This document shows positions 29,614-63,009 of a DNA stretch of 64,000 bases, one piece after another. The notes below the pieces were generated by a model. It did not search any database. It was not told the origin of the DNA and worked only from the letters and a program-made list of their open reading frames with translations. Every line of letters begins with the position of its first letter. Position 1 is the stretch's first letter. Source of the DNA: Actinomycetes bacterium. Lineage in GTDB: Bacteria > Actinomycetota > Acidimicrobiia > Acidimicrobiales > JAMCPL01. The position numbers and the translations under genes were made by a program. The DNA is taken from contig JAKAWR010000010.1 in NCBI GenBank assembly GCA_021816935.1, positions 42,607-106,606 on the forward strand, in the 5' to 3' direction.

Positions 29614-29838
29614 TATTGGGCCTTCTCGACTGGCTGCACGAGAATGCCGTGCCTGCTATGGTGACTGCTGAGCGAGAGCGTCCGGTGGATGCGAGAGCGA
29701 GGAAGCCGGCCGGCTGATGGGAGGCGGCGACGGAGCCGCTACCGGTTCGGTGGTCGTGAAGCTTGAGCAGGTTGGCAGGATGCGGTACCGACCACGGTCG
29801 GCTGGTTGCGAGGACACGATTTCGTGCGAAAGGGAGCC

Positions 29839-32800
29839 ATGACGATAGCGCCGGAAATGAACATGATAGGGGTGAAAAGGCATTTCACGACTTCGGGGGT
29901 CGATCCGTACGATCTCGTGGACTGGGAGCTGCGTACCGCCAGGATAGACAATCCGACGGACGGCAGCGTCGTCTTCGAGCAGCGAGACGTGGAGGTGCCT
30001 CGTACGTGGAGCCAGAACGCCACCAACATCCTTGCGCAGAAGTACTTCAGGGGGGCACTGGGCACACCTGAACGGGAGCATTCGCTGAAGCAGGTTTGCA
30101 ACCGAGTGGTTGATACGATCGCAGCCTGGGGCGATAAGGACGGGTACTTTGACGGTCCCGAGGAGGTCGAGGCGTTCGTTGCCGAATTGAAGTACCTGAT
30201 CATTACTCAGAGGGCCGCTTTCAACTCGCCGGTCTGGTTCAACATCGGTGTGTTGGACGTGCCGCAGCAGGCTTCAGCGTGTTTTATCCTGTCGGTGGAC
30301 GATACGATGGACTCGATCCTCAACTGGTACACGGAGGAGGGGACGATTTTCAAGGGCGGGTCCGGCGCCGGGGTCAACCTCTCGTCCATCAGGGCGTCAA
30401 GTGAGCCGCTGAAGGGTGGCGGGACGGCGTCCGGCCCGGTGTCGTTCATGCGTGGGGCAGACGCCTCGGCCGGTACGATCAAGTCCGGCGGAAAGACGCG
30501 CCGTGCCGCAAAAATGGTCATCCTCAATGCCGACCACCCGGATATCGAGGAGTTCATCTGGTGCAAGGCAAGGGAGGAGCGCAAAGCCAGGGCGCTGCGT
30601 GAGGCCGGCTTCGATATGAGTCTCGACGGAGCGGATTCGTTCTCGGTCCAGTATCAGAACGCGAACAATTCGGTGAGGGTCACCGACGAGTTCATGTGGA
30701 GCGTGGTCGATGGTGGCACGTGGGACCTGACGGCGAGGCACGGGGGCCAGGTGCTCCGGAGCGTGGATGCCCGCGGGCTTTTCCGCCAGATCGCCGAGGC
30801 AGCGTGGGATTGCGCCGACCCCGGTATCCAGTTCGACACCACCATTAACAACTGGCACACGACGCCCAATGCTGGCCGGATCAACGGCAGCAATCCATGC
30901 TCAGAATATATGCACATAGACAACTCGGCCTGCAATCTGGCCAGCCTGAACCTGCTCAAGTTCCTGGAGAGTGACGGTGGTTTTAAGGTCGAGGATTTCA
31001 AGGCAGCCGTCGAGCCCGTGTTCGTGGCGCAGGACATCCTTGTGTCGAATGCCGACTATCCGACGCCGAAGATTGCCGAGAATTCGCGCCGGATGCGCGA
31101 GCTCGGGCTTGGTTACGCAAACCTCGGTGCCGCCATCATGGCGCAGGGGATGCCCTACGACTCACCTGAGGCAGGGACCTGGGCGGGTGCGGTTACGGCG
31201 CTCATGACCGGTCACGCGTACCGCGTATCGGCCCGCATGGCGGCGAGGCTAGGGCCCTTTGCCGGCTACCACGCCGATTCCGAGGGGACGGCGCGGGTGC
31301 TCTCCCAGCATCGCCAGGCCGTCGCGGCGATAGACGAGGAGCTGGTGCCGACGGACCTCCTGTCTGCGGCTCAGGAGGCCTGGGACACGGCGGTCTCGGA
31401 GGCAGAGGCCAACGGCGTGCGCAACTCGCAAGCCACCGTGTTGGCCCCCACCGGAACCATCGGTTTGTTGATGGATTGCGATACGACGGGGATTGAGCCG
31501 GATCTGGGCCTGGTCAAGACGAAGCGCCTAGTGGGCGGTGGAACGATGTCGATTGTGAACCAGACGGTCGGGAGAGCGCTGGAGCGGCTGGGCTACTCGA
31601 GTGCCGAAGCCGATCAGATCACAGCGTACATAGACGAGCACAAGAGTATTATGGGCGCTCCCGGGCTCCAGCCGGAGCACCTCCCTGTCTTTGCGTGCTC
31701 GATGGGGGACAATGCCATTCATTACATGGGCCACGTCAGGATGATGGCCGCCGTGCAGCCGTTCATCTCGGGCGCTATCTCGAAGACGGTCAACATGCCG
31801 GAGGATGCGACGGTTGAGCAGGTGGAGGAGTTGCTCTTGGACGGCTGGAGGATGGGGCTCAAGGCTATCGCCATCTACAGGGATAACTGCAAGGTGGCCC
31901 AGCCGCTGTCAGTGACGAAGCGTGACAAGGGAGAGCGGGGCGACGCTGCCGGGGCCGGCGAGGATGCGGGAGGCGCAGCAGGCGGCGGGACGGGCATTGA
32001 GCCAGGGGGCGTGGTGGGCGCCGGGAGCCAGCCTGGCGGAGTGCCAGGGGGAGCGACCTTCGATGAGCCAGCCCTGAGCCAGCGTATCGAGGAGCTGGAG
32101 CGCCTCCTCCAGACGGAGGTTGCTGTCAAACGCCCCGTGCGAGAGAGGCTACCCCGCCGCAGGCACTCGGCTACGTTCGCGTTCCGAGTTGCAGACTGCG
32201 AGGGCTACGTGACGGTGGGGGAGTACGACGACCGGCGGCCGGGCGAAGTTTTCATGAAGGTATCGAAGCAGGGATCCACGCTCTCCGGCATCATGGACGC
32301 GTTCTCGATCTCGGTCAGCCTTGGGTTACAGCACGGCGTTCCGCTGGCGACCTACGTGCGGAAGTTCACGAACATGCGCTTCGAGCCAGCCGGGATTACC
32401 GACGACGCCGACCTGAGGATCGCCTCCAGTCTCGTCGACTACATATTCCGGCGCCTCGCTCTCGATTATCTGAGTCTCGACGAGCGCCAGGAGCTCGGTA
32501 TCCTCTCGACGAAGGAGCGAACCCAGCCCACGCTACCCGGCATGGATGAGGTCGGCGTGGAATCCTCGGGCATCGTTGAAGGGTCTCCCGGCTCTGCGTC
32601 GGGCGAGGTCGGACCGCGGGGCAAGGTTGCGCCGGCGGGGCAGGAAAAGACGGTCGGTGGCGAGGACGGTGCGGAGCCCGGCGTTAGCGCTGAAGGCAGT
32701 GCTGGGGCAGGTGTCAGTGGGGCAGGTGCCAGTGGGGCAGGTGGCGCAGGTGCGGGCGACGCTGCAGGTGTCGCCAGTGCTGCTGCAGGTCGTGTCGTGG

Positions 32801-32943
32801 GAGCCCCTCCTTCTGCCGCCAACGCAACCGTGCAGAGAGCAGAGAGAGACGCTCCCATGTGCTACGAGTGCGGCAACGCGATGCAACGCTCGGGATCCTG
32901 TTACGTCTGCACCAGTTGCGGTACGACCAGCGGCTGCAGTTAG
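29839..32943 (+). CDS. nrdJ: Vitamin B12-dependent (class II) ribonucleotide reductase with C-terminal TSCPD-type/Zn-ribbon domain
   Basis: FNSPVWFN, SACFIL, SGGKTRRAAKM, SNPCSE (radical Cys), APTGTI and terminal CYECG...CTSCGTTSGCS; ATG after AGGGAG. Confidence 0.95.
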   Translation: MTIAPEMNMIGVKRHFTTSGVDPYDLVDWELRTARIDNPTDGSVVFEQRDVEVPRTWSQNATNILAQKYFRGALGTPEREHSLKQVCNRVVDTIAAWGDKDGYFDGPEEVEAFVAELKYLIITQRAAFNSPVWFNIGVLDVPQQASACFILSVDDTMDSILNWYTEEGTIFKGGSGAGVNLSSIRASSEPLKGGGTASGPVSFMRGADASAGTIKSGGKTRRAAKMVILNADHPDIEEFIWCKAREERKARALREAGFDMSLDGADSFSVQYQNANNSVRVTDEFMWSVVDGGTWDLTARHGGQVLRSVDARGLFRQIAEAAWDCADPGIQFDTTINNWHTTPNAGRINGSNPCSEYMHIDNSACNLASLNLLKFLESDGGFKVEDFKAAVEPVFVAQDILVSNADYPTPKIAENSRRMRELGLGYANLGAAIMAQGMPYDSPEAGTWAGAVTALMTGHAYRVSARMAARLGPFAGYHADSEGTARVLSQHRQAVAAIDEELVPTDLLSAAQEAWDTAVSEAEANGVRNSQATVLAPTGTIGLLMDCDTTGIEPDLGLVKTKRLVGGGTMSIVNQTVGRALERLGYSSAEADQITAYIDEHKSIMGAPGLQPEHLPVFACSMGDNAIHYMGHVRMMAAVQPFISGAISKTVNMPEDATVEQVEELLLDGWRMGLKAIAIYRDNCKVAQPLSVTKRDKGERGDAAGAGEDAGGAAGGGTGIEPGGVVGAGSQPGGVPGGATFDEPALSQRIEELERLLQTEVAVKRPVRERLPRRRHSATFAFRVADCEGYVTVGEYDDRRPGEVFMKVSKQGSTLSGIMDAFSISVSLGLQHGVPLATYVRKFTNMRFEPAGITDDADLRIASSLVDYIFRRLALDYLSLDERQELGILSTKERTQPTLPGMDEVGVESSGIVEGSPGSASGEVGPRGKVAPAGQEKTVGGEDGAEPGVSAEGSAGAGVSGAGASGAGGAGAGDAAGVASAAAGRVVGAPPSAANATVQRAERDAPMCYECGNAMQRSGSCYVCTSCGTTSGCS

Positions 32944-33072
32944 CCTGGATTCCCACGTTAGGTTGGTGGGTTAAGACCACGGGTACTCTTGTCGACCCAA
33001 TGCCAATCCGAGCCGCTGGTCCTCCCCCCAGGGAACGGCGACCTCGGTATCTGCGAACCAGGCGTCGAGTAA

Positions 33073-33232
33073 GGGCCCGTGTCATAATTAATTGAGCGAT
33101 CCCGACGGCCAGATGACGCCCCTGGCTGTGTCCTCGTCCTCGATGTACTCCCTGGTACATCTGCGTCCTCGTCCTTGCCAGATGACGCCCCTGACTCGCC
33201 GGATATCATCCCACTAATTATGACACGGGCCC
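33073..33232 (-). mobile_element. Non-autonomous MITE-like/structured repeat, copy A
   Basis: Perfect 18-bp TIR GGGCCCGTGTCATAATTA, flanked by TAA on both sides; internal similarity to copies at 37621, 42830 and 61940. Confidence 0.8.
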
Positions 33233-33361
33233 TAAGTAGGGGTTGTGGGCCAGCTCGGCGAAGCGCACCTCGCCCGCGCCGTCGGTGATCGCGGCCCGCG
33301 CCGAGACCTGACCTCAATTGGAACTCCGAAGTGAGAGTGCCCGCCTTGGAGCAGTGCCGCC

Positions 33362-33664
33362 TCAGCGGTGGGCATCGCCCGAATGGCCCAGGTGCCAGCG
33401 GGAACAAATCTCGCACCGATAGACTTCCAGGTCCGCGCCCTGCTCCATTGCGAGCCGCAGGGTCTCGCGCTCGGCAGCTTCCGGGGTGTTGAAGCGGGTC
33501 TTGGGCTTGCCATCCCGCCGCCAGTGGCCGTAGCGAAGGTCGCCCCCTGCGGACCCGGGCCGTTCCCTTGATCCCGACCGGGAACGTCGCGGAGCGCGGG
33601 ACTTGCTCTGGTTGTCGGCATCCGGGCGGCGAACGGGGCGAGCCTGCTCGGTAGGTCGGGTCAT
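33362..33664 (-). CDS. Small hypothetical protein with putative Zn-binding CxxCxxxH motif
   Basis: WRRDGKPKTRF...EVYRCEICSRWHLGH. Confidence 0.6.
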   Translation of the reverse strand: MTRPTEQARPVRRPDADNQSKSRAPRRSRSGSRERPGSAGGDLRYGHWRRDGKPKTRFNTPEAAERETLRLAMEQGADLEVYRCEICSRWHLGHSGDAHR

Positions 33665-33730
33665 GACTGAAAGGCTACCTTGGAGCCAGCTGCTCTGCGT
33701 CAGGGCAGGTGGCCGAGGCGGCGTGGACGA

Positions 33731-35071
33731 TCAGCGGGCCGGCGGACCCATTAGTTGGCGAAGCCGAACGCGCCCACCTGTTCGCAACACCGCTGAGCGG
33801 TAGATGCGGGCCGCTACGGCAGCGACAGCAACGGTGCACAGGATGCACAATGCAACCGACAGGAGGAACTGCCACCACGTGGCCTGGTTGAAGCCGACCA
33901 ACGTCGGCATGGCAAAGGGGGCGGTGGGTGGCAGGTAGGCAAGCACCTTCACGAGCATCGACGGGCTCCCGGAGCTGACGCCGATGAGGGAGACGATGTA
34001 GCCGAAGAGGAGAGGCAGGCTCAGTGGCAGTGCCAGGCTCTGGATCTGGTCCTGGCGCTCCCCAAGAGAGCCGGCCGCGGCGTACACCCAGCTGTAGAAG
34101 CCGTAGCCGAGCACCAGCCACACCAGCGCGGCTGCCACGACAACCGGAGCCGTGCCGTGGACAAGGTTCGAACCAACCGCCTTGCCGAGCACGAGAGCGA
34201 ACGCTACGAGCGCCACGGCTTGAGCCAGTGCGACCGCACCGATGCCGGCTACTTTGCCCGCGAGCAGTTGGATCGGACGCACCGTAGCGAGCAACACCTC
34301 TACGACCCGGCTTGCCTTTTCCTCCATCACCCCCATCAGCGTCCAGGTGAGGTACTGGTTGAGTACGACGAAAATAAGTATGATGCCGAGAAGGGCGGTC
34401 GATTCTGACGTGGTCTTGCGTGGCTTTCCGGGCTGCAGGCTTTCGACCGGCAACGGCTGAGCGCCGGCGACAATGGCCGCTTGCCCCGAGGTCAATCCCG
34501 CGCGAGCGTAGGCGTGATAGGCGCCGAGATCCAGTGACACCTCACGTACATAACGAGCCTTGGGAGAGGTGTCGGTAATCGAGAGAGGCTTCTGAAGCAG
34601 GACCTTCTTCGTCCCCTCCAGCACCAGGTCGAGCCGGCCGGAATCGAGGCCGGTCCTGGCCTGCGCCAGGTCCGGCTCGCTTACGATCCGCACCGTCAAT
34701 CCGGCGCTGCTTGCGAGTTGCTCGAGTGCCCTGTTCAACGCGGTCGAATCAGCGACAACACCCACCTTTGCGTTCTGCGCCGCCCTGCCGTGCAGCGTTG
34801 GGATGATGACGGCGGCTGCAACCACCCCGAACAGAATGACCGTCACCACCCGGAACACCCGGCCGCGAAGGCGTTCGCGGATCTCCCGCCCGGCGACAAT
34901 GCCGGTGTCGCCAAAGAGCCTGCGATCCCACAATCGCGTCGCGCGGGAAGCTGCCGGTGACGGTGACTGCACTGATGACTGTGACGCCGAACGGCGCTTC
35001 TTGCGGACGCGCAGCAGCCGGATGATTACAGCGAGCACGAAGGCAGCGATGACGATCGGGAATGCCTTCAT
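33731..35071 (-). CDS. ABC-2 type (NatB-like) exporter permease
   Basis: GVMEEKASRVVEVLL, LLAGKVAG, YAAAGSL and LPPTAPFAMP; ATG overlaps the ATPase stop. Confidence 0.88.
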   Translation of the reverse strand: MKAFPIVIAAFVLAVIIRLLRVRKKRRSASQSSVQSPSPAASRATRLWDRRLFGDTGIVAGREIRERLRGRVFRVVTVILFGVVAAAVIIPTLHGRAAQNAKVGVVADSTALNRALEQLASSAGLTVRIVSEPDLAQARTGLDSGRLDLVLEGTKKVLLQKPLSITDTSPKARYVREVSLDLGAYHAYARAGLTSGQAAIVAGAQPLPVESLQPGKPRKTTSESTALLGIILIFVVLNQYLTWTLMGVMEEKASRVVEVLLATVRPIQLLAGKVAGIGAVALAQAVALVAFALVLGKAVGSNLVHGTAPVVVAAALVWLVLGYGFYSWVYAAAGSLGERQDQIQSLALPLSLPLLFGYIVSLIGVSSGSPSMLVKVLAYLPPTAPFAMPTLVGFNQATWWQFLLSVALCILCTVAVAAVAARIYRSAVLRTGGRVRLRQLMGPPAR

Positions 35072-35967
35072 CGCCCCACCGCCTCCCGGAACACTTCGGA
35101 AAGGCGGCGACGTTCGAAGCCGAACTTGGTGACCCGTCCGGCGGTGCGCGCGGCGTCCAGGACGGTATCGCTCTCGACGGAATCGTCGAGGATCAAGCGC
35201 ACTTCGCCCCCTTGGACTTCTGAGACAGTGACACCGGGCAGGGCGCCCGCCCAAGCCGCGCGCCGGTCCCCCTCTACGCGAATTGCGAGCCGCCGCGCCC
35301 CCTGCGTTGCCAGCTCGTCGACGGTGCCGCTCGCCACGAGCCTTCCGTGGTCGATGATTGCCACCGATTCGCACAGGTCCTCGACGAGGTCGAGCTGGTG
35401 GCTGGAGAACAGCACGCAGCGCCCAGCGCGTGCCTGTTCAACGAGGACCTGGCCTATTACATCGACGCCGGCAGGGTCCAGTCCGGCGAGGGGCTCGTCA
35501 AGGACGAGGACGTCCGGGTCGTGAACGAGCGCCGCCGCCAGCTGGACGCGCTGCTGGTTGCCGTGCGAGAGCGCTTCTACCTTGTCCCGTGCACGGTCCG
35601 CCACCTCCAGGCGCTCGAGCCACCGCGCCGTGGCGGACGCGGCCTCGGCGGATCGCATCCCGTGCAGTCGCCCGAGGTAATCGAGCTCGTCGGCCACGAG
35701 CATGTTCGGGTAGAGCCCGCGCTCCTCGGGCATGTACCCGAAACGGCGTCGCTCGGCCGCCCCGACAGGTGTCCCGTTCCATCGGACGGATCCGGCGTCG
35801 AGATCGGTGAGCCCGAAGATGGCCCTCATCGTGGTGGTCTTGCCGGCTCCGTTCGGCCCGAGGAAGCCCACGACCTCGCCGGAAGGAACCGAAAAGCTCA
35901 GCCCGTCGAGTGCCGTAACGGCACCGAATTGACGGGTCAGGCTGTCGACCTCGAGGGAACTACTCAC
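35068..35967 (-). CDS. ABC transporter ATP-binding protein
   Basis: GPNGAGKTT, GYMPEERGLY, LSHGNQQRVQ, LDEP and SSHQL. Confidence 0.92.
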   Translation of the reverse strand: MSSSLEVDSLTRQFGAVTALDGLSFSVPSGEVVGFLGPNGAGKTTTMRAIFGLTDLDAGSVRWNGTPVGAAERRRFGYMPEERGLYPNMLVADELDYLGRLHGMRSAEAASATARWLERLEVADRARDKVEALSHGNQQRVQLAAALVHDPDVLVLDEPLAGLDPAGVDVIGQVLVEQARAGRCVLFSSHQLDLVEDLCESVAIIDHGRLVASGTVDELATQGARRLAIRVEGDRRAAWAGALPGVTVSEVQGGEVRLILDDSVESDTVLDAARTAGRVTKFGFERRRLSEVFREAVGR

Positions 35968-36079
35968 CGAGTCTCCATGGCTTCCGATGATAAGCGGGCA
36001 GCCAAGCCAGTTGCAATGACCGGAATGCCCTCCGAGTAATTCTCGAAGGTCGTGGCGTAAAGGCAGCTGCGTTCCAGCG

Positions 36080-37321
36080 CTACTGGCGTGAGCGCCCGGC
36101 GCCCGGCTCGGTGGTACCGGCGGCGGCAGCGCTGCCGGACTGTGGGGCGGCACCTCGGGATCCTGAGCCGGGAAGGCCGTCGAGCCAGTGTGCCACCTCT
36201 GTCGTGAGCCGCTTGCCCCGCACGCGCATCTCGAGGACGGAGTGGGCTTCGAGGAAGCGAGCATTGGGCATCCCGGCGGCTAGTTCGACCGCGTCGGCGT
36301 AAGGGTGAATGCGGTCATGGCGGTGGCCGATCACGAGAGTGGGTGCGCCGATGGATGTCACCTGCTCAGGGGTCGGTACGGAGGCGCCCATGAAAAGCCC
36401 CTCCAGGACGGCCAGTGCGTGTCTGGGATCTAGCGATGCCTCGTTCAGGAAGCTGTCGAGCGGCGCGAACCCGGTTCTCGGGACCATCGAAATCAAGCGG
36501 GCGAGTACCGAGTAGGGTCCCTCGAGGTACCGCATCGCCGCGAGCATCGGGACGAAGGTCACAGCGGCCGTAGGTATGGCGTGCGTCAGCGAGGGCATTT
36601 CGACGATGAGACCCCCGATCCGTTCGGGTGCGGCGAGAGCGGCGAAGAGGGCGACGTTAGCCCCGAGGGACACACCGCCTACGACTGCCCTGTCGATCCC
36701 CAGGTGGTCGAGGAGGTTGATCGCGTCGGTAGCGTAGGAGTCCATGCGGTGGCGCTGCCGGTCGAGCGGCTTTGCAGATGCACCGTGGCAGGGGAGGTCG
36801 AGGAGGATCACCCGGTTCCCGGCCAGAGCGAGCCGCTGCGCAAGAGGCCTGTTCAGGTTGGCGTCCAGAAGCAGACCATGGAGGTACACGACGGTACGGT
36901 TTGCGGTTCCGGACCCGTGGATCTCGTAGGAGAGATCCACCCCGCGTGAGATGAAGGACTCGATGCGGTAGGGTGGCCGATGGCGACGGGCGGCCGGATA
37001 GGTACCGGGTCGGCCGGGCTCCAGACGCTCCTGCCCGCTGTCGCGGCCCGGCGAGGGCCGCTTGCCGTTCCTCCCGACCGGAGATGAGCGCTTCGCTCTC
37101 CGTTCAGCTGGCGAGGCTCGCCGCTCGTTCCCCTCGCCGCGGGGTTCCCCCCTCCCGTTCCTCCCGACCGATGAGTCGTTCTTCCCGGAATGCTGCTCGA
37201 ATGATGGCGTTCGGGCAACTCGCAGCTGGTACCAGCGATCGGCAGGAATGGCTCCGGTACCCGGGGTCTTCTCGTGCGGGGGCCTGTGGCCGTCCGCGCC
37301 AGTATGCCGATTGGTTGCCAT
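36080..37321 (-). CDS. Alpha/beta hydrolase
   Basis: YLHGLL, LDLPCHG, GVSLG nucleophile elbow. Basic disordered N-terminus, start uncertain. Confidence 0.8.
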   Translation of the reverse strand: MATNRHTGADGHRPPHEKTPGTGAIPADRWYQLRVARTPSFEQHSGKNDSSVGRNGRGEPRGEGNERRASPAERRAKRSSPVGRNGKRPSPGRDSGQERLEPGRPGTYPAARRHRPPYRIESFISRGVDLSYEIHGSGTANRTVVYLHGLLLDANLNRPLAQRLALAGNRVILLDLPCHGASAKPLDRQRHRMDSYATDAINLLDHLGIDRAVVGGVSLGANVALFAALAAPERIGGLIVEMPSLTHAIPTAAVTFVPMLAAMRYLEGPYSVLARLISMVPRTGFAPLDSFLNEASLDPRHALAVLEGLFMGASVPTPEQVTSIGAPTLVIGHRHDRIHPYADAVELAAGMPNARFLEAHSVLEMRVRGKRLTTEVAHWLDGLPGSGSRGAAPQSGSAAAAGTTEPGAGRSRQ

Positions 37322-37620
37322 GATTGATTACGAGGATATCGCAGCGGTCCCGGCAGGGCGCGCATACCCTGGAAGAATGTGACGAAAGACCCCAGGCGCA
37401 ACTACTACGCTCGAGCCTCCGGATCAGGTAGTAAGGCTTGTGGATCGTGGGACGAGCCGTTGGGTACCGGTCGACAAGAACTCACGACGATAGGTAACGA
37501 GTCCGGTCCGCGCCGATGCACGATAGCGGTGCGTGCCGCGCCGCATCGAGCGTGAGGTCCGAAACCGTTGTTCCGGGAACCCTGCCACCATGAGAGTCTA
37601 CTCGGGGAGCAACGGATGCC

Positions 37621-37785
37621 AGTGCAGTGTCCACCAAGTAGTGCGATGCTATTCGGCAAGGCAGCGGCGTCATCTGGCAAGGCGGATAACGCAGGCGTAC
37701 TGGGCAGTAAGACGAGGACGACAACGCAGCCAGCGGCGTCATCCGCCCGGCGAGAGCGCGCTGATTAGCTGGTGATCACTGTACT
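37621..37785 (+). mobile_element. MITE-like/structured repeat, copy B
   Basis: Imperfect TIR AGTGCAGTGTCCACCA / TGGTGATCACTGTACT; interior (GGCGTCATCTGGCAAGG...CGAGGACGACAACGCAGCCAGCGGCGTCATC) aligns with the reverse complement of copy A. Confidence 0.72.
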
Positions 37786-37893
37786 AAGCTCAAGATCCGT
37801 GCCGGTCGCTTTCCTGGTTGTTCTTGGCGTGCTCGGGGTGCCGAGCATGGCGCTCAGGCCCTCGGGCCGTAGCGTTCCACAGGGAATGTACTC

Positions 37894-38637
37894 GTGAAGG
37901 GCGTTCTGCTTGCCGGCGGGAGCGGTACCAGGCTCTATCCCCTTACGAGGATCACCAACAAGCACCTGCTCCCGATCTGGGATCGGCCGATGGTTGCATA
38001 CGGAGTCGAGGCACTTGTCAAGGCCGGTATCACTGAGATCATGCTGGTGACCGGCGGGACCCACGCGGGCGAGTTCCTTCGCCTTCTGGGTAACGGTCAT
38101 GAGTACGGTATCGAGCGACTTGCCTATGCTTACCAGGAGAGTGCGGCAGGGATAGCCGATGCGCTGGGCCTTGCCGAGCGGTTCGTCGGCGATGACCGGG
38201 TAGTGGTGATGCTCGCTGACAACATCCTGGAGTACTCGATCCGCTCCTATGTGGAGAGCTTCGAGGCTCAGGCGTCAGGCGCGCGCCTGCTCCTGTGGGA
38301 GGAGACGAGCGGCGACCACCTGCGGAGCCTGGGTGTCGCCGAGATCGGCGAGGGTGGCAGGCTGGTTGACATCGTCGAGAAGCCCTCCGAGCCGCCGAGC
38401 AAGCTGGCCGTGACCGGAGTCTACATGTACGATCCCGCGGTGTTCGGCATGGTGAGGCAGCTCGAGCCGTCGGCCCGCGGAGAGCTGGAGATCACCGACG
38501 TGAACAACTTCTACGTGAAGGCGGGGACCGCGGATTACGACGTGCTCAAGGGGTTCTGGGGCGACGCCGGGGAGTCCATCGAGGCCTACTACGCGGTCAA
38601 CGACTTCGTTCGCGATAACGGGGTCAACAAGGACTAA
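37894..38637 (+). CDS. Glucose-1-phosphate thymidylyltransferase-like sugar nucleotidyltransferase
   Basis: LAGGSGTRLYPLT..NKHLLP, EKP and PSARGELEITD. Confidence 0.88.
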   Translation: MKGVLLAGGSGTRLYPLTRITNKHLLPIWDRPMVAYGVEALVKAGITEIMLVTGGTHAGEFLRLLGNGHEYGIERLAYAYQESAAGIADALGLAERFVGDDRVVVMLADNILEYSIRSYVESFEAQASGARLLLWEETSGDHLRSLGVAEIGEGGRLVDIVEKPSEPPSKLAVTGVYMYDPAVFGMVRQLEPSARGELEITDVNNFYVKAGTADYDVLKGFWGDAGESIEAYYAVNDFVRDNGVNKD

Positions 38638-38686
38638 GACGCTCCGACGAGGGCTGGGGTGCTGAGGAGGGCAGAAGGCTGATGTC

Positions 38687-40315
38687 CTACAGGGCGGCAG
38701 CCCATGCGATTGCCTCCTGGCGGTGCCTGGCGTAGTCGACCTTTCCATTGGGAGCCCGCCCAATGGTATCGACGAATCGCACCCGTTTCGGGGCCTTGTA
38801 GCCCGCGAGGTTGGCCTTTACGTGGTCGATCAGCTCGTGGGCGGTAACCTGCGATGCCGACTGTAGTTCCACCACGGCAGTGATCGCTTCGCCGAACTTG
38901 TCGTCGGGGATGCCAACCACAACAGCGTCCCGCACTCCGTCGTGCGCTTTGATAACCTCTTCGACCTCTTCGGGGAATACCTTCTCGCCGCCCGTGTTGA
39001 TGCATTCCGAACCCCGACCGAGCAGATGGATGGTCCCGTCTGCACCGATGGTTGCGAAGTCGCCGGGTATTACGTAGCTCACTCCGCCAATCAGCCTGAA
39101 GGTGGCTGCGGTCTTTCGCTCGTCCTTGTAGTAGCCGATTGGGTTGCGCCCTGGCAGGGCCACGATGCCGGAAGTATCTGAGCCGGGAGCGACCTCTTCC
39201 AGCGTGTCCGGGTCGAGAACCCTCACGCCCTCTCCCAGCGTGAACTTGCCCGTATTGGCTGCCGTGACACCCGACGAGATCGACATGCCCATCCCGACAG
39301 CCTCGGACGACGAGAAAACATCGACGAGCAGCATGTTCGGGTTGCGATCCAGCAGGGCCTCCTTGGTCTGCTCGCTCCACATCACTCCTGACGAGATGAT
39401 CGAGACGACGCTGGCAATGGTGTAGCGGTCCGGATGCGCCTCCAGCTCGGCGACGATCGGTTTGGCGAACGCGTCCCCGACGATCGAGAGGGCGTTGATT
39501 TTCTCGCGGGTGACGGTCTCCAGAAGTTCCGCTGCATCGAAGCTACGCTTCGTGAGGGTGACGATGGAGCCGGCCATAGACATGATGCCGAGTGCCGTGA
39601 ACGCTCCCGTGCCGTGCATCAGCGGGCAGGCTGGTAGCAGGGATATGCCGGGCCCCTTGAGCGCACGTCGCACGCCGTCCATGCCGCCGGTCAGGCTGAA
39701 CGGAGCGAGGGAGAGGCCACCCAGGACGCGCATGAAAAGGTCGTCCTGGCGCCACATGACCCCCTTTGGATAACCGGTCGTCCCTCCCGTGTAGAGGAGG
39801 TAGAGGTCATCACCGGTCCGCTCCCAGGGGGCGGTGAAACGGCCCTCCCGAGCACTCGTGACCGCCTCCTCGTAGGGCGTCGCCCACTCGGGGCACGGCC
39901 CGCTGCCGTCGTCCACGAAGAGCCAGATCTTCACGTTCGGCAGCTTCGATCTGATCGGTTCGATACCTTCTGCGAAGCTCCCTTCGAATACCACGGCTTC
40001 GGTGTCTGCGTTGTCCCACAGGTAAATCAGCTCATCCTTCATGTAGCGGTAGTTGGTATTGACCGGTACCATACCCGCCTTGAGCGTTCCGAATACCGAT
40101 TCCATGTACTCCGGCCTGTTGTAAAGGTACTGCGCAACCTTCGACTGGTAGGTGAGCCCGGAGCCAACCAGGGTCGCAGCCAGGCCGTCCGCCCGCCGGT
40201 CCATCTGCGACCAGGTATAGCGCCTGTCCCCGTGCACAAGGGCGGTGGCGCCGGGAAGCTGGTCAGCGATCACTTCCCAGAGGTCGGCAAAGTTCCACTT
40301 GGAGTTATCGGTCAC
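38687..40315 (-). CDS. Acyl-CoA synthetase (FadD19-like)
   Basis: YTGGTTGYPKG, PLMHGTG, IPGDFA, GRGSECINTGGEKVFPEEVE and GYKAPK. Confidence 0.92.
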   Translation of the reverse strand: MTDNSKWNFADLWEVIADQLPGATALVHGDRRYTWSQMDRRADGLAATLVGSGLTYQSKVAQYLYNRPEYMESVFGTLKAGMVPVNTNYRYMKDELIYLWDNADTEAVVFEGSFAEGIEPIRSKLPNVKIWLFVDDGSGPCPEWATPYEEAVTSAREGRFTAPWERTGDDLYLLYTGGTTGYPKGVMWRQDDLFMRVLGGLSLAPFSLTGGMDGVRRALKGPGISLLPACPLMHGTGAFTALGIMSMAGSIVTLTKRSFDAAELLETVTREKINALSIVGDAFAKPIVAELEAHPDRYTIASVVSIISSGVMWSEQTKEALLDRNPNMLLVDVFSSSEAVGMGMSISSGVTAANTGKFTLGEGVRVLDPDTLEEVAPGSDTSGIVALPGRNPIGYYKDERKTAATFRLIGGVSYVIPGDFATIGADGTIHLLGRGSECINTGGEKVFPEEVEEVIKAHDGVRDAVVVGIPDDKFGEAITAVVELQSASQVTAHELIDHVKANLAGYKAPKRVRFVDTIGRAPNGKVDYARHRQEAIAWAAAL

Positions 40316-40558
40316 CCTGACATAGTAGGCGATACTCCGGGGTACGAGCCACAAGGCCGTCCGGAGTACAGGAGAAGGCGGGTGGAGCGCGGTCGGGAAA
40401 TGAGCCTGGCGGGCGGGGGCGAGCGGCGAGGCGGGTGGAGCGGGCTGGGGGAATGAAAGGGTGGAAATGGTAGGTGAGTCGCGGACATGGGGCAAGGTGG
40501 AGGCGGGAAGGATGGCGGTGCAGGTTGCCGCGGGGCGTGCCGGGCGGTAACGTGGAGT

Positions 40559-40611
40559 GGGGAAGTCGGGGGAAGTCGGGGGAAGTCGGGGGAAGTCGGG
40601 GGAAAGCGGGG
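40559..40611 (+). repeat. 10-bp tandem repeat (GGAAGTCGGG) x4 plus a partial unit; G-quadruplex-competent
   Basis: G4-AAGTC-G5-AAGTC-G5-AAGTC-G5-AAGTC-G5-AAAGC-G4. Confidence 0.85.
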
Positions 40612-40719
40612 CGGAGAGCGGGGAAGCTGGAGGTGAACCGGCAACGCAGGGTGGGGCGTAGCAGGGAGCGGGGATACGGGAACGGGCAATCGGCATTCGA
40701 CAGAAGGAGAGAAGAAGCC

Positions 40720-41934
40720 ATGGAGCTTGCACTTCCCGGCGAGGACCACCCGGCCCGTGTCGCATTCCGCGAGTGGCTTGCCGCTCACCCGGATCCGAGT
40801 CCGATGGATCTGGCCCGATCGGGGTACGTCGGTCCGCACTGGCCTGAGCCGTGGGGACTCTCGGCGGGACCGATCGACCAGCTCGTCATCGACGACGAGA
40901 TGCGCAAGGCGGGGATAAAGCGTCCTCAGAACAGGATAGGTATCGGCTGGGCCGGACCCACCATCCTCCAGTACGGTACCGATGCGCAGAGGGAGCGCTA
41001 CCTGCTTCCGCTCCTGGCCGGGGATGAGATCTGGTGCCAGCTTTTCTCCGAGCCCGACTCGGGTTCCGATCTGGCCTCGCTCTCGACGAGAGCCGTGCGT
41101 GACGGGGACGAGTACGTGGTGAACGGCCAGAAGATTTGGACCAGCTTCGGGCACGAGTCGCAGTTTGGCATCCTGCTTGCAAGAACCGACCCGGATGCCA
41201 GAAAGCAGGACGGTATTTCCTATTTTATCTGCCCGATGGATGCTCCGGGCGTAACCGTCGACCCGATAATCGACATGACCGGGCTACACGCGTTCAACCA
41301 GGTGTTCTTCGATGATGTCCGGATACCTGCGGAGAACCTCGTGGGGGAGGAGAACGGCGGCTGGGCGCTGGCCAAGGTGACCCTCGGGAACGAGCGAGTG
41401 TCGCTGTCCGGCGAGGGCGCGTTGTGGGGGGACGGACCGTCGGCCGAAGCTCTTGTGGAGATCGTGAGACGGTCGGGCAGCATGCTGACGCCTACGCTCG
41501 CCCAGCGCATGGTTCAGGTGTGGTCGGAGTCGGAGATCCTTCGGATCTTGCGTATGCGCCAGATCGGTGCGGCGATCGAAGGCCTGAAGCCCGGACCCGA
41601 GGTGTCCGTCCGGAAGGCGATGGCAGACGAGCACGGCAAGCACCTGATGGATCTGGCGAAGGACGTCGCCGGCTCGTACGGGCTACTAGCCGACGCCGGC
41701 CCGATGGAGGGACTGCAGGGGCGCCACGCCGGTGAGCCGGTTCTCGACGGCGGAGGGGTCTGGCCTGCCCTTGTTTGGTCAATGGGCTACCTCTACGCGC
41801 AAGCGCTTACGATCGGAGGCGGCACCTCTGAAGTTCAGAGGAACATCATCGGCGAGCGGATACTGGGCCTACCGAGGGAGGCCGACGTAGAGGAGGGACT
41901 CACCTGGGCCGAAAGCAGGGCCAGGAGGCGTTGA
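40720..41934 (+). CDS. Acyl-CoA dehydrogenase
   Basis: WCQLFSEPDSGSDLA, NGQKIWTS, FNQVFFD and GGTSEVQRNIIGERILGLP. Confidence 0.92.
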   Translation: MELALPGEDHPARVAFREWLAAHPDPSPMDLARSGYVGPHWPEPWGLSAGPIDQLVIDDEMRKAGIKRPQNRIGIGWAGPTILQYGTDAQRERYLLPLLAGDEIWCQLFSEPDSGSDLASLSTRAVRDGDEYVVNGQKIWTSFGHESQFGILLARTDPDARKQDGISYFICPMDAPGVTVDPIIDMTGLHAFNQVFFDDVRIPAENLVGEENGGWALAKVTLGNERVSLSGEGALWGDGPSAEALVEIVRRSGSMLTPTLAQRMVQVWSESEILRILRMRQIGAAIEGLKPGPEVSVRKAMADEHGKHLMDLAKDVAGSYGLLADAGPMEGLQGRHAGEPVLDGGGVWPALVWSMGYLYAQALTIGGGTSEVQRNIIGERILGLPREADVEEGLTWAESRARRR

Positions 41935-41954
41935 TGGCGGGCAAGGCGCTTGGT

Positions 41955-42815
41955 TTACCGGGCGAGCTTGACCACCTGAAGCACGAAGTGGGCGAACGCG
42001 TCCGGGTGGGTGAGGTGTGCTCCGTGACCGGCACCCCCGAGATCTGACATCTCCGCACCCGGGATAATCGCGCGCAGCTCCCTTACGCTGCGGCGCAGGC
42101 GTGAGGGCGAATGCTCGCCTCTCAAGAGAAGGACAGGTATCGCGATCGGTTCTGCGGCCAGCCTCGGTCCTCCCATCCGGAGCGCCTGGGTCTCCGCCAC
42201 GAGTGCCGCGCCGTCCTGCATGATCTCTTCCTTCGTCCGTTCGGGCAGCCTGTCCCAGGTTCTACGTCCGGCAACCCGCCGGAAGAAAGTCTCCGCTGCA
42301 AGTTCCGGCCTGGCGAGGTCGAGCATATTGGGGCGGGCAGGTGCCCACCAGGGTTCCCAGGGTAGGGGCGGCTCGTAGGCACCGACGGCCTTCAAGGTCG
42401 GGGGATGGGCCATGGCTGCCGCAAGGGCGATGGTGGCCCCGTACGAGTGTCCTACGACGACAGATTCGCGCCCGTCGATCAGAGCAAGAAGGTCTTGCAC
42501 GTGCCGGTCAAAGGCGTCAACTTCCCTATCCGCCGAGCCTCTTCGTACCGGCGGGCCTGCCGGTACGTCTTGCGCGGGCCTGCAGCCCGGCTCATCGCCT
42601 GTACGGCACCCCGGATCGCTCGCGGCCGCTCGGGACCTCGCGTAACCGCGGCGGTCATAGGTAAGCACGTTCTGTCCGGCGAGTCGCCTGACGACGCGCC
42701 GGAAGCTTGCTGCTCTGTCGAGGGAGCCGTGAACCAGCACGACCAGGGGCGGCCTGCCCGGCTGCTCGTCGACGTTCAGAGCCTGATCGGTCTTCGCCTG
42801 ATCGGTACGGGGCAT
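41955..42815 (-). CDS. Alpha/beta hydrolase
   Basis: VHGSLD, YDRRGY, GHSYG and GAGHGAHLTHP. Confidence 0.85.
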   Translation of the reverse strand: MPRTDQAKTDQALNVDEQPGRPPLVVLVHGSLDRAASFRRVVRRLAGQNVLTYDRRGYARSRAAASDPGCRTGDEPGCRPAQDVPAGPPVRRGSADREVDAFDRHVQDLLALIDGRESVVVGHSYGATIALAAAMAHPPTLKAVGAYEPPLPWEPWWAPARPNMLDLARPELAAETFFRRVAGRRTWDRLPERTKEEIMQDGAALVAETQALRMGGPRLAAEPIAIPVLLLRGEHSPSRLRRSVRELRAIIPGAEMSDLGGAGHGAHLTHPDAFAHFVLQVVKLAR

Positions 42816-42829
42816 CGCAACACAACCTA

Positions 42830-43036
42830 GTGCACCGTCTCATAAGTAACCATGCGATCCCACCAGCCAGATAACGCCGCCGGCTGTGTCCTCGTCCTCG
42901 ACGTACTCCCTGGGACGCGCATACAATGTGCTCCGCCATGCCTGTCCCGCAACAGTCCACCGGACTGTTGCGCATCCTTGCCAGGCAGCGCCCCTGACTT
43001 GCCTATTATCATCACGCTATTTACTAGACGGTGCAC
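42830..43036 (-). mobile_element. MITE-like/structured repeat, copy C, with ~50 bp internal insert
   Basis: TIR GTGCACCGTCT / AGACGGTGCAC inside CTAG...CTAG; interior GGCTGTGTCCTCGTCCTCGACGTACTCCCTGG nearly identical to copy A. Confidence 0.8.
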
Positions 43037-43470
43037 TAGCGGTCCGGCGCGAGTCCCGATCGTGGGGACGATCCGGTTCGGGGGATCGCTCCCGTTTCGC
43101 AGGCCGGCCGGTTCGCCCGGTAGCGGGAAGAAGAGGGACCCTGGCGCGTCCAGTTTGAAAATTGGCCCGTCACCAGGAGAGTGTGGTCAACCACGAGGGG
43201 TGGATGAGGTAAAGCCCCAATTCCACACTTGCCCTCATGGAAGGAAAGACTACCTGTTCGCATCAGGAAAATCCACGCCTCGGGGGGATATCGCAGCGAA
43301 CCTCGCTCTCGTACCATAACAAGTGCTTAAGAGAATTGGGCTCAAGTTCTAACACCGTTCGTCGATATGTAAGAGAGATCACTACAGAGCGTGGCGAGGA
43401 CAGTGCATAGAGGTGTTGATCCAGGGCCCGGGCGTGCAGATCGGCAAATCGGCAAGATGGGAGGTCCGAG

Positions 43471-60403: not shown

Positions 60404-60490
60404 TGGCCGCCAGTGGCGTCAAGGCAGTCCGGGTTTACGACGACCCGGGACGTTTATGTCCGGCCAGCGAACTCGAAATACGAAAACCGA

Positions 60491-60870
60491 GTGGAGGTGG
60501 CGGGAATTGAACCCGCGTCCCCCGGCTCTTCGACAGAGCTTCTCCGAGCGCATCCAGCGCAAGATCTCAGTTGCGGGAACGGTGCTGGCCCCGCCCGGGC
60601 AACCCAGCCGGCTCTAGTTTCCCAACCGCACCGCCGGCTGCGTGCAGGTTGGTATCCCCGATTTCATGACACCCCGTCCGCTAGAGGCGGACCTGCTCAG
60701 CAGTCGCCGTCCCCCGGGGAGAGGTACGGCAGGGGCGGGTTGCCCTCAATCAGGCAGCCAATGCCAGTTCAGAGTTGGCGTTTGTTTGTTTCCCGGCTCT
60801 TTAGCGTGGTTCCGGGCACCACGGCTCGCTTCCTCTGTCTCGACTACCGGAGTCGAATCCTTTCACCCCC
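60491..60870 (-). ncRNA. ssrA: tmRNA, tag peptide (A)ANSELALAA
   Basis: 5' GGGGGTGAAAGGATTCGAC; 3' GCGGGTTCAATTCCCGCCACCTCCAC; acceptor stem with G3-U wobble; tag ORF 60779-60750; CCA not fully encoded. Confidence 0.95.
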
Positions 60871-61939: not shown

Positions 61940-61992
61940 CGGCGTCATCTGGCTGGCGAGATCGCATGGTTATTTATGAGACGGTGCGCTAG
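61940..61992 (+). mobile_element. Partial copy D of the MITE-like repeat, overlapping the smpB 3' end
   Basis: 48/53 identity to the reverse complement of 42827-42879, ending in CTAG. Confidence 0.8.
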
Positions 61993-62496
61993 CTCCCGGG
62001 CAGCCTCCCTCGATTCGTCGCGCTCCTGAATGGCCTGTCGCTTGTCCCACATGCGCTTACCACGTGCGAGTGCGAGCGACACTTTGGCCCTGCCCTGCTT
62101 GAGGTAGATGGCTAGCGGTACGAGGGTGAGGGAGGCCCTCTCCACCTTCCCGGCGAGCTCGTCGATCTCGGCCCGGTGAAGTAGCAGCTTGCGCTTCCTG
62201 TCCGGGTCGTGCGCCCCGTAGGCTCCCCCCTGCTCGTAGGGTGCAATGTGGGCGCCTATCAGCCACATCTCCCCGCCGTCGACGGCACCGTACGCGTTGG
62301 AGAGCGAGCACTGGCCAGCGCGTAACGACTTGATCTCGGATCCCTGAAGCACAATCCCGCATTCGAAAGTCTCGATGATGTCATAGTCGAACCTGGCCCT
62401 CCGGTTACGAGCCATGGTCCGGGGCGCGCCCGTATCCCGCTTCCCGGCCTTGGCCCTGGATGGGTTCGGCGATCGTGGCTTCCTTGGACCCGTCAC
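61945..62496 (-). CDS. smpB: SsrA-binding protein
   Basis: NRRARFDY, GIVLQGSEIKSLR, RKRKLLLH, TLVPL and ARGKRMWDKR. Start is GTG 62496 or ATG 62415. Confidence 0.95.
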   Translation of the reverse strand: MTGPRKPRSPNPSRAKAGKRDTGAPRTMARNRRARFDYDIIETFECGIVLQGSEIKSLRAGQCSLSNAYGAVDGGEMWLIGAHIAPYEQGGAYGAHDPDRKRKLLLHRAEIDELAGKVERASLTLVPLAIYLKQGRAKVSLALARGKRMWDKRQAIQERDESREAARELAHRLINNHAISPAR

Positions 62497-62577
62497 GCCA
62501 GCCAGCGTACCAGGCTGTTTCGCCCGCCCTGCCGACAATTGAGGCGGGAACGTGGTCGGCTGCCGGTATGGTTGTAG

Positions 62578-63009
62578 GTGATGATCGTGCTGCCGGCTGG
62601 CCTGTATTCGGAGATGATGGCTCATTGCCTGCGGGGATTACCGGAGGAGGCGTGCGGGTTGCTGGGGGGTCACGGCGATGTAGCCGAGGTGTTCTATCCG
62701 GCGGGCAATGAGGCCCGTTCGGCCCGCCTGTATACCGTAGAGCCGAAAGCCCATCTCCTTGCCGACCGCGACGCCGAGGAAAGGGGCATGGCCGTCGTCG
62801 GCGTCGTTCACTCCCACACCCACACGGAGGCATATCCCTCACCGATCGACGTGGACCAGGCGGTGGATCCGTCCTGGCATTACCTGATCGCAAGCTTCTG
62901 CCGGGTGATGCCGTCGCTCAGGTCGTACAGGATCGTGGGTGGCGCGGCCGAGGAGGAGGAACTGAGGATCGTCGCCACGATGGGCGGCACTGGCGGCCTG
63001 CACGGATAG
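62578..63009 (+). CDS. mec: JAMM/Mov34 peptidase, CysO-cysteine peptidase
   Basis: PEEACGLL and HSHTHTEAYPSPID JAMM motif; upstream of cysO-cysM. Confidence 0.88.
   Translation: MMIVLPAGLYSEMMAHCLRGLPEEACGLLGGHGDVAEVFYPAGNEARSARLYTVEPKAHLLADRDAEERGMAVVGVVHSHTHTEAYPSPIDVDQAVDPSWHYLIASFCRVMPSLRSYRIVGGAAEEEELRIVATMGGTGGLHG

Follow-up and report, generated by a model that had tools for sequence, protein, structure and literature searches.

A putative family of miniature inverted-repeat transposable elements with a strand-specific predicted fold in one actinobacterial order

The element copies in the analyzed region

The window, i.e. the whole stretch of 64,000 nucleotides analyzed here, is part of contig C7 (GenBank JAKAWR010000010.1) of an 18-contig assembly (G000) with a size of 2.32 Mb, a G+C content of 64.4% and a completeness of 85.5%. 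It contains three copies (A, B and C) and one fragment (D) of a short dispersed element, which is treated here as a putative MITE (miniature inverted-repeat transposable element). All four had been described in an earlier note made from the sequence, and all were recovered at the same places; with 56 matches in the genome, the recurrence is far beyond chance. The following features were assigned, with scores referring to R1, a covariance model built from 36 diverse copies (alignment A1).

33073-33232, minus strand (the G-rich, rod-forming strand): copy A, a GGGCCC-type MITE of 160 nt, 170.1 bits
33070-33072, no strand: left TAA target duplication of copy A, with its right counterpart at 33233-33235
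33073-33090, plus strand: left terminal inverted repeat (TIR) of copy A, 18 nt, GGGCCCGTGTCATAATTA, with a perfect inverted partner at 33215-33232
33215-33232, minus strand: right TIR of copy A, a perfect 18-bp inverted repeat
37622-37784, plus strand (the G-rich strand), opposite to copy A: copy B, an old TG...CA-type copy with decayed ends, 134.8 bits
42830-43036, minus strand: copy C, a long form of 207 nt with GTG...CAC ends, 98.7 bits
42919-42976, plus strand: 58-nt inserted module of the long forms, which takes the place of one GGAC box in copy C
61940-61989, plus strand: fragment D, the terminal 50 nt (second box 1 to terminus; hmm positions 3-49), with TA next to it

Copy B is followed by TA (37785-86) and preceded by CA, a decayed TA (37620-21). 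Copy C is flanked by TA on both sides (42828-29 and 43037-38), each inside CTAG. The 58-nt module of copy C contains a perfect hairpin, GCAACAGTCC-ACC-GGACTGTTGC, at 42949-42971. The module was matched 36 times, and 3 of these matches are solo look-alikes located outside elements; the further sites listed are C11:30047, C15:9955 and C8:58864 of G000. The module is located at the right GGAC box in G000 and at the left box in copies from related metagenome-assembled genomes (MAGs; L041 and L096), and its strand orientation is constant.

The neighbours in the window are ordinary housekeeping genes, encoding a class II ribonucleotide reductase, an ABC-2 transporter, hydrolases and a nucleotidyl transferase. 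The reductase gene (B12-dependent enzyme of 1045 aa with a C-terminal TSCPD domain; 29806-32943, plus strand) is located just upstream of copy A. A tmRNA gene (60489-60870, minus strand; 134.9 bits to RF00023) lies about 1.1 kb from fragment D, and the stop codon of an open reading frame (61945-62625, minus strand) falls within this fragment. In four metagenome runs the contig depth was 460-920 at positions 35609-36009, in an ABC-transporter ATPase gene, vs. about 5-10 nearby; this peak probably reflects conserved ATPase sequence common to other organisms.

Copy number and subfamilies in the genome

The 56 matches of the profile search (nhmmer) comprise 39 full-length and 17 partial copies. 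The GGGCCC type accounts for 23 of the full copies (17 with 160-161 nt, 6 with 205 nt) and the TG type for 16 (11 long and 5 short), the first bases being decayed in some of the latter. Sixteen of the 160-nt GGGCCC-type copies show a mutual identity of 98.8-100%, which points to a recent amplification burst of this subfamily, including copy A, in this genome. Several of the partial matches are derivatives of about 90 bp that lack everything between the two direct box-1 copies.

The elements are short (160 or 205 nt), multi-copy and devoid of a transposase gene or coding capacity. According to crude, GC3-based gene calls, 35 of the 39 full copies are located outside the gene set, and the gene contexts are co-directional in 18, convergent in 12 and divergent in 9 cases. 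Contigs from the metagenome runs end at the repeat edges, and the copies break the assemblies of these MAGs. An empty site, in which a joint skips exactly one element, was not among the metagenome contig joints listed.

The generic properties of MITEs, namely TIRs, a target-site duplication, a short multi-copy form without transposase and a matching autonomous element, were all found for the family, the autonomous element in relatives only. The reading of the copies as a MITE, one of those considered in the earlier note, is thus borne out by TIRs, target duplications and many short gene-free copies.

Ends, target duplications and related transposases of the TG...CA subfamilies

For the analysis of the ends, about 90 copies with flanks were examined. 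In the TG...CA copies, the base outside TG is nearly always a G and the base outside CA nearly always a C, followed further out by TA. At the outer edge of the flanks, at least 16 copies have unlike bases on the left and the right (left C>T, right G>A). Because of the invariant inner G/C, the TA and the variable outer bases, the ends were determined to be GTG...CAC with a TA duplication and the target YTAR. Models with a 4-bp (CTAG) or a 3-bp duplication for the TG type were rejected on the same grounds.

A search of ten element-rich genomes with PF13358 gave one match (G057), in which the transposase stop codon is immediately followed by an end matching the MITE termini, i.e. the right end of an element of the IS630 family of insertion sequences (IS). 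Complete IS630-family elements of 1212 bp with TA flanks were found in G083 and G112. Their 377-aa transposases reach 157.7 and 154.5 bits to the IS630 equivalog NF033545 (cut-off 100). The MITE termini agree with the IS ends in 18-21 of 24 positions overall (21/24 for G079 and G063, 20/24 for G014 and 19/24 for G057). As read from the aligned sequences, this similarity stops beyond about 20 nt, therefore the MITE interior is not an IS remnant. The earlier note had allowed for the case that the TIR types map to known IS with a transposase remnant between them; the first part applies to the TG...CA ends, which map to IS630-family elements, and the second part does not hold for the interior.

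IS630-type transposases would move the TG...CA subfamilies in trans by cut-and-paste, as is suggested by the TIRs, the TA duplications and the termini nearly identical to those of complete IS630-family elements. The TIRs would differ largely because they follow the ends of IS630-type partners that are diverging and that each require a matching pair of ends.

Other candidates for a partner were rejected. The rve matches in G000 belong to IS3-family elements at contig ends, which have a different left end (TGACCGGACACC...), and to an IS30 fragment. A TIR-like stretch beside a small helix-turn-helix (HTH) gene on C18 has no inverted partner, and the ends of an IS4-like gene of G003 and of a 2-kb IS of G014 are unrelated. 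Solo TIRs in G014, G061 and G079 turned out to be decayed or contig-end copies instead of autonomous elements.

The IS3-family element of G000 spans a contig break (C6:114548-115616 at the C6 end and C18:1-800 at the C18 start). Three solo copies of its left end, each of about 96 bp, were found at C5:20387-20482, C1:48089-48185 and C10:143394-143492, and the one on C5 directly abuts a GGGCCC-type MITE. Transposase fragments of the IS30 type (HTH_38; 'GHWEGDLI' motif) are located at C18:729-1421 and C11:80214-80633, both on the minus strand, and a small two-HTH protein (C18:1445-1918) adjoins an IS30-type fragment.

The GGGCCC subfamily

The flanks of the 23 GGGCCC-type copies are TTA/TTA in 14, TAA/TAA in 7 and TAA/TTA in 2 cases, and are therefore identical on both sides in 21 of 23. 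Such flanks indicate a 3-bp TWA duplication, which is not made by the IS630 type. In the inner TIR and throughout the interior, these copies agree with the TG-type copies of G000, the difference being confined to the six or seven outermost bases. G070 contains another GG...CC subfamily, which has TTA flanks and occurs beside TG-type copies. The suggestion made earlier that different IS ends carry one core agrees with these data, since TA-duplicating GTG...CAC and TWA-duplicating GG...CC ends share the core.

The GGGCCC subfamily may be moved by an enzyme with a 3-bp stagger that would be PIF/Harbinger- or IS5-like. Its expected partner would be an IS with GGGCCCGTGTCA ends and TWA duplications. 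An IS5-type element of G057 was considered as the GG...CC partner on account of a subterminal resemblance and was dropped, as its true ends, determined from four contig-end copies, are GAGTACATA... This element is multi-copy and about 1 kb in size (DDE_Tnp_4, 64 bits; C34:1-1050, C13, C44 end and C53 end), and it breaks the G057 assembly at four contig ends.

Predicted fold and covariation

Folded as RNA, the minus (G-rich) strand of copy A is predicted to form one continuous rod with −93.6 kcal/mol (z −10.4), whereas the plus strand reaches −68.6 kcal/mol (z −7.25) and retains just its terminal and its apical stem. The G-rich strand was the more stable one in 36 of 36 diverse copies, with a mean difference of 20.4 kcal/mol as RNA. 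Besides a terminal helix, the rod has two long helices, in which G·U pairs are conserved and two A are bulged, the GGAC/GGAC segment and an apical hairpin, the sequence of which is free to vary.

The helix proposed in the earlier note is identical to the predicted minimum-energy fold of the copy A minus strand, with 18 pairs between two CAGGGGCGUCAUCUGGC boxes; its four G-U pairs, the two bulged A and the apical GAUGUAC/GUACAUC hairpin are likewise present. The "purine-rich loops" described there are probably not loops, as two GGAC stretches facing each other form G-C pairs with tandem G·A mismatches between them. The GGACGAGGAC boxes, which are direct repeats, may pair in this way in the predicted fold. 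The isolated pairs of the GGAC segment flip jointly from C-G to G-C in 23-26 copies. The box-1 copies, also direct repeats, have diverged at different positions and yet remain complementary (U-A to C-G in 10 of 36), which argues for pairing and not for a repeated protein site.

For the 36 diverse copies aligned with MAFFT (A1), 41 pairs were predicted by RNAalifold. Compensatory (double) changes were found in 30 of the 41 pairs vs. 18.6 in shuffles, and 93.6% of the cells were paired vs. 79.1% in shuffled alignments and 30-50% with slid partners; none of 500 shuffles reached any of the five measures. A second alignment (A2) of 103 distinct copies from about 20 genomes, aligned to model R1, resulted in 92.6% paired cells vs. 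71.8% in shuffled alignments (slid controls 28-47%) and in double changes in 38 of 41 pairs. In the interior helices of A2, double changes occurred at 8/8, 8/9 and 6/7 pairs. The terminal helix is paired to 95.1% in the 103 copies and all 6 of its pairs have changed on both sides, in accordance with the earlier statement that the ends differ and stay complementary.

Strand signature and conservation profile

The predicted pairs comprise 203 G·U cells vs. 28 A·C cells, and the other strand would pair only 81.7%. Since this structure was predicted on the G-rich strand, a strand-neutral check was made, in which each copy was aligned to its own reverse complement and both transition mismatches were scored alike. 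For isolated mismatches flanked by Watson-Crick pairs, 158 G·T vs. 19 A·C were counted (237 vs. 145 in a cruder count without the flank rule). That the G-U pairs select one strand, as proposed before, is therefore seen in both the structure-based and the strand-neutral count.

Within the interior the majority base had a frequency of 0.73, compared with 0.60-0.63 for the terminal 22 nt and 0.51 for TIR positions 3-6. The claim that structure is kept better than end sequence fits to this profile.

These data bear on the possibility of a purely selfish MITE without any selected single-stranded form, in which the hairpin is a by-product: template switching or gene conversion between the arms would maintain the symmetry of a DNA palindrome, and the founder of each subfamily would have had matched ends. 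MITEs in general yield stable predicted hairpins, according to PMC10969869. The 90-bp deletions between direct box-1 repeats attest to active DNA-level rearrangement, the TIR differences are accounted for by matching IS630 ends, and the orientation of the copies is unbiased with respect to GC skew and majority gene strand (see below). However, symmetrisation of DNA predicts Watson-Crick pairs on both strands and not a G·T excess at fixed positions in many subfamilies, and it leaves unexplained the pairing of boxes 1 and 2 despite their direct orientation as well as the stronger conservation of the interior compared to the ends. We regard a purely selfish element of this kind as unlikely.

Distribution across the order

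Within the order, model R1 gave matches in 22 of 151 genomes, which represent 19 of 123 genera. Nearly all of these matches are full-length (153-163 nt), and single genomes contain up to 19 or more scored copies. A DNA search matched the interior of copy A, though not its ends, in 8 of 61 related genomes. In a collection scan with the box-1 17-mer, true double matches were restricted to a few uncultured Actinomycetota MAGs, besides many single chance matches; the corresponding scan with the 18-mer TIR of copy A gave 5 matches in low-GC metagenome contigs, which were dismissed as chance. In three copies from a related MAG (L019, L022 and L011), which are nested or recombined, box 1 marks the junction between an element of one TIR type and the tail of another, and the two ends of these chimeric copies are mismatched. 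A literature search found no paper on MITEs in this group. Model R1 can be used for annotating these elements in MAGs.

The distribution is informative for the idea, raised in the earlier note, that the GGA motifs are CsrA-type sites, i.e. that the element is an RNA titrating CsrA. Each element has four GGA motifs, and G000 encodes CsrA (C9:132550-132708, plus strand; 86.3 bits), about 630 bp from one copy. In the order, CsrA was found in 36 of 151 genomes. It is present in 7 of 22 element-bearing and 29 of 129 element-free genomes, so that no co-occurrence was found, and it gave no match in G010, G079, G084, G070, G057, G061, G139 and G014. Each of these genomes carries 6 to 19 or more copies, and those with the highest copy numbers are among them. 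In addition, the GGA motifs are located in a predicted G·A helix and not in hairpin loops. The CsrA idea is thus unsupported, and a titrating function appears very improbable.

A structured RNA spreading via an RNA intermediate, as the "mobile ncRNA" of the earlier note would imply if its mobility were RNA-mediated, is in keeping with the strand-specific fold and its G·U pairs. No match to the reverse transcriptase family PF00078 was found in any of 6 family genomes, the termini are like those of DNA transposons, and the target duplication is TA or TWA. Rfam gave no family for the element: the tmRNA was the only hit at gathering score within the window, and no match up to E = 5 was obtained in 32900-43200. 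Such a retro-mobile RNA can hardly be assumed.

Interpretation of the element family

Taken together, the family is likely to consist of MITEs, i.e. non-autonomous DNA transposons, that occur in at least 19 genera of one actinobacterial order, with TG...CA subfamilies of the IS630 type and an interior kept as a strand-specific fold. The differing and nonetheless matched ends are largely explained by IS630-type partners, whereas the conservation of the interior, its covariation and the one-strand pattern remain unexplained by such partners. Three features, namely an interior that is conserved throughout the order, compensatory changes well away from the ends and the restriction of G·U and G·A to one strand, together suggest that a G-rich single-stranded form is selected.

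Several results weigh against this interpretation. The GGGCCC subfamily lacks the TA duplication of IS630-derived MITEs, and no partner was found for it in G000. At its completeness of 85.5%, the same genome gave no match to PF13358 or to the G057 protein, and searches with PF01609, PF13359, PF13358 and PF13586 revealed no IS630, IS5/PIF or IS4-type transposase. The TG-type ends of G000 itself resemble IS ends only over about the first ten bases. The IS630 protein was matched in 38 of 151 genomes (a tally that takes in two genomes flagged unpublished, G047 and G146, which no other claim uses), and only 4 of the 22 element-bearing genomes are among them. Regarding the covariation, the copies are related, so that the shuffle controls overstate it, and alignment A2 was fitted to the structure of the model. 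With DNA parameters the same strand was favoured in 36 of 36 copies, by 6.4 kcal/mol, hence the folding energies do not separate RNA from single-stranded DNA (ssDNA). Among the sequencing runs containing the locus, which comprise 6 DNA runs from 3 studies, there was no RNA run. In co-directional contexts (crude gene calls), 13 of 18 copies have the G-rich strand as sense strand, so the orientation is weakly biased or unbiased and not significant, and the comparison with local GC skew and with the majority gene strand gave 17 vs. 22.

Alternatively, the rod may be needed as folded ssDNA in transposition or repair, where a fold-back would join the ends of a short, stiff element or let one end template the other, with selection acting on mobility. 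This possibility is supported by the strand preference under DNA parameters, by the length kept at 153-163 nt over the order and by the outermost helix, which covaries most strongly. A precedent is provided by REPINs, in which compensatory changes occur in a hairpin thought to act as ssDNA (PMC3116915). On the other hand, with DNA parameters the G-rich strand of copy A shows no continuous rod and only a small difference from the other strand, a Y1/HUH transposase was not detected in G000, and the orientation is unrelated to the local GC skew (17 vs. 22). Furthermore, IS630/Tc1-type enzymes are double-strand cut-and-paste enzymes. Selection on a folded ssDNA form therefore appears doubtful. If the rod does act in DNA, it bears on how very short elements join two ends for transposition.

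Within the preferred interpretation as MITEs with a selected fold, the rod may instead matter in read-through transcripts, as a self-contained duplex that would be processed or would insulate neighbouring mRNA. RNA is favoured because it gains much more stability than DNA from G·U and tandem G·A pairs, and because of the precedent of the Correia and ERIC elements discussed below. We hold this role tentatively, with slightly less than even confidence. Should the rod act in RNA, the dozens of copies in each small genome would provide acid-mine-drainage actinobacteria with a ready-made layer of post-transcriptional structure.

A further, rather speculative extension is that the conserved unit is a core of about 120 nt carried as cargo, which would form the one-strand rod with its fixed G·U pairs, bulged A and tandem G·A helix and would be a structured RNA module with its own function in transcripts, for which transposon ends would serve as interchangeable vehicles. 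It would include that the core persisted over at least 19 genera, that the ends were repeatedly re-tuned and that at least two switches from TA (IS630-type) to TWA (PIF/IS5-type) took place. We consider this extension as possible but not probable.

Comparison with known systems

The REPINs are dispersed hairpin-forming repeats, and as in the present family the hairpin is the conserved unit and two-sided compensatory changes are common (PMC3116915). They differ in that they have no TIR and target duplication signature and depend on a Y1 transposase, whereas here TA or TWA duplications and TIRs matching IS630 ends were found and no Y1 transposase was detected in G000. A search with PF01797 for a REP-associated tyrosine transposase (RAYT) gave no match in this genome. 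The sole strong match to PF01797 in the family (G001) is an IS200/IS605-type gene with no element copy nearby. It is thus exceedingly improbable that the element is REPIN-like and moved by a RAYT.

Compared to IS630-family IS and their MITEs, the present elements are alike in the TA duplication, the GTG...CAC ends (up to 21/24 identical to complete IS630-family elements of the order) and the small, gene-free, multi-copy form. IS630 represents bacteria within the IS630/Tc1/mariner group, and the plant counterparts of its MITEs are the Stowaway MITEs with TA duplications (PMC6327408). Unlike IS630-derived MITEs, the interior does not originate from the IS and is conserved across the order as a covarying, strand-specific rod; moreover, one subfamily duplicates TWA instead of TA, and no partner was found in G000.

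Tourist/PIF elements are marked by TTA/TAA duplications and a TIR beginning with GGGCCCGT. The TIR of ZmPIFa, which occurs with TTA, is GGGCCCGTTTGTTT (Table 2 of PMC6327408). The GGGCCC subfamily resembles this IS5-related Tourist/PIF-Harbinger group in its 3-bp TTA/TAA duplication, and 9 of its first 10 bases are identical to the ZmPIFa TIR as listed there. It differs in that its remaining TIR bases and its interior agree with the TA-type subfamilies, and no DDE_Tnp_4 or IS5-type transposase was found in G000.

The Correia (CREE/NEMIS) elements of Neisseria and the ERIC elements of enterobacteria are TIR elements of 100-160 bp, the transcripts of which form long hairpins that serve as substrates of RNase III or RNase E. 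Folding is known for MITE transcripts, cleavage by RNase III for Correia elements and an effect on mRNA levels for ERIC elements (PMC10969869). We think that the present rod may work like these hairpins, by analogy. Neither the sequence nor the host phylum is related, and RNA processing is known there whereas here the fold is predicted. To our knowledge, a G·U strand asymmetry and an order-wide covariation have not been described for Correia or ERIC elements.

MITEs are usually defined by their ends and the interiors are treated as filler, whereas the opposite pattern is measurable here. The elements described are a new MITE family of a known kind, of which the covarying, strand-specific core and the change of the duplication type on one core are the unusual parts.

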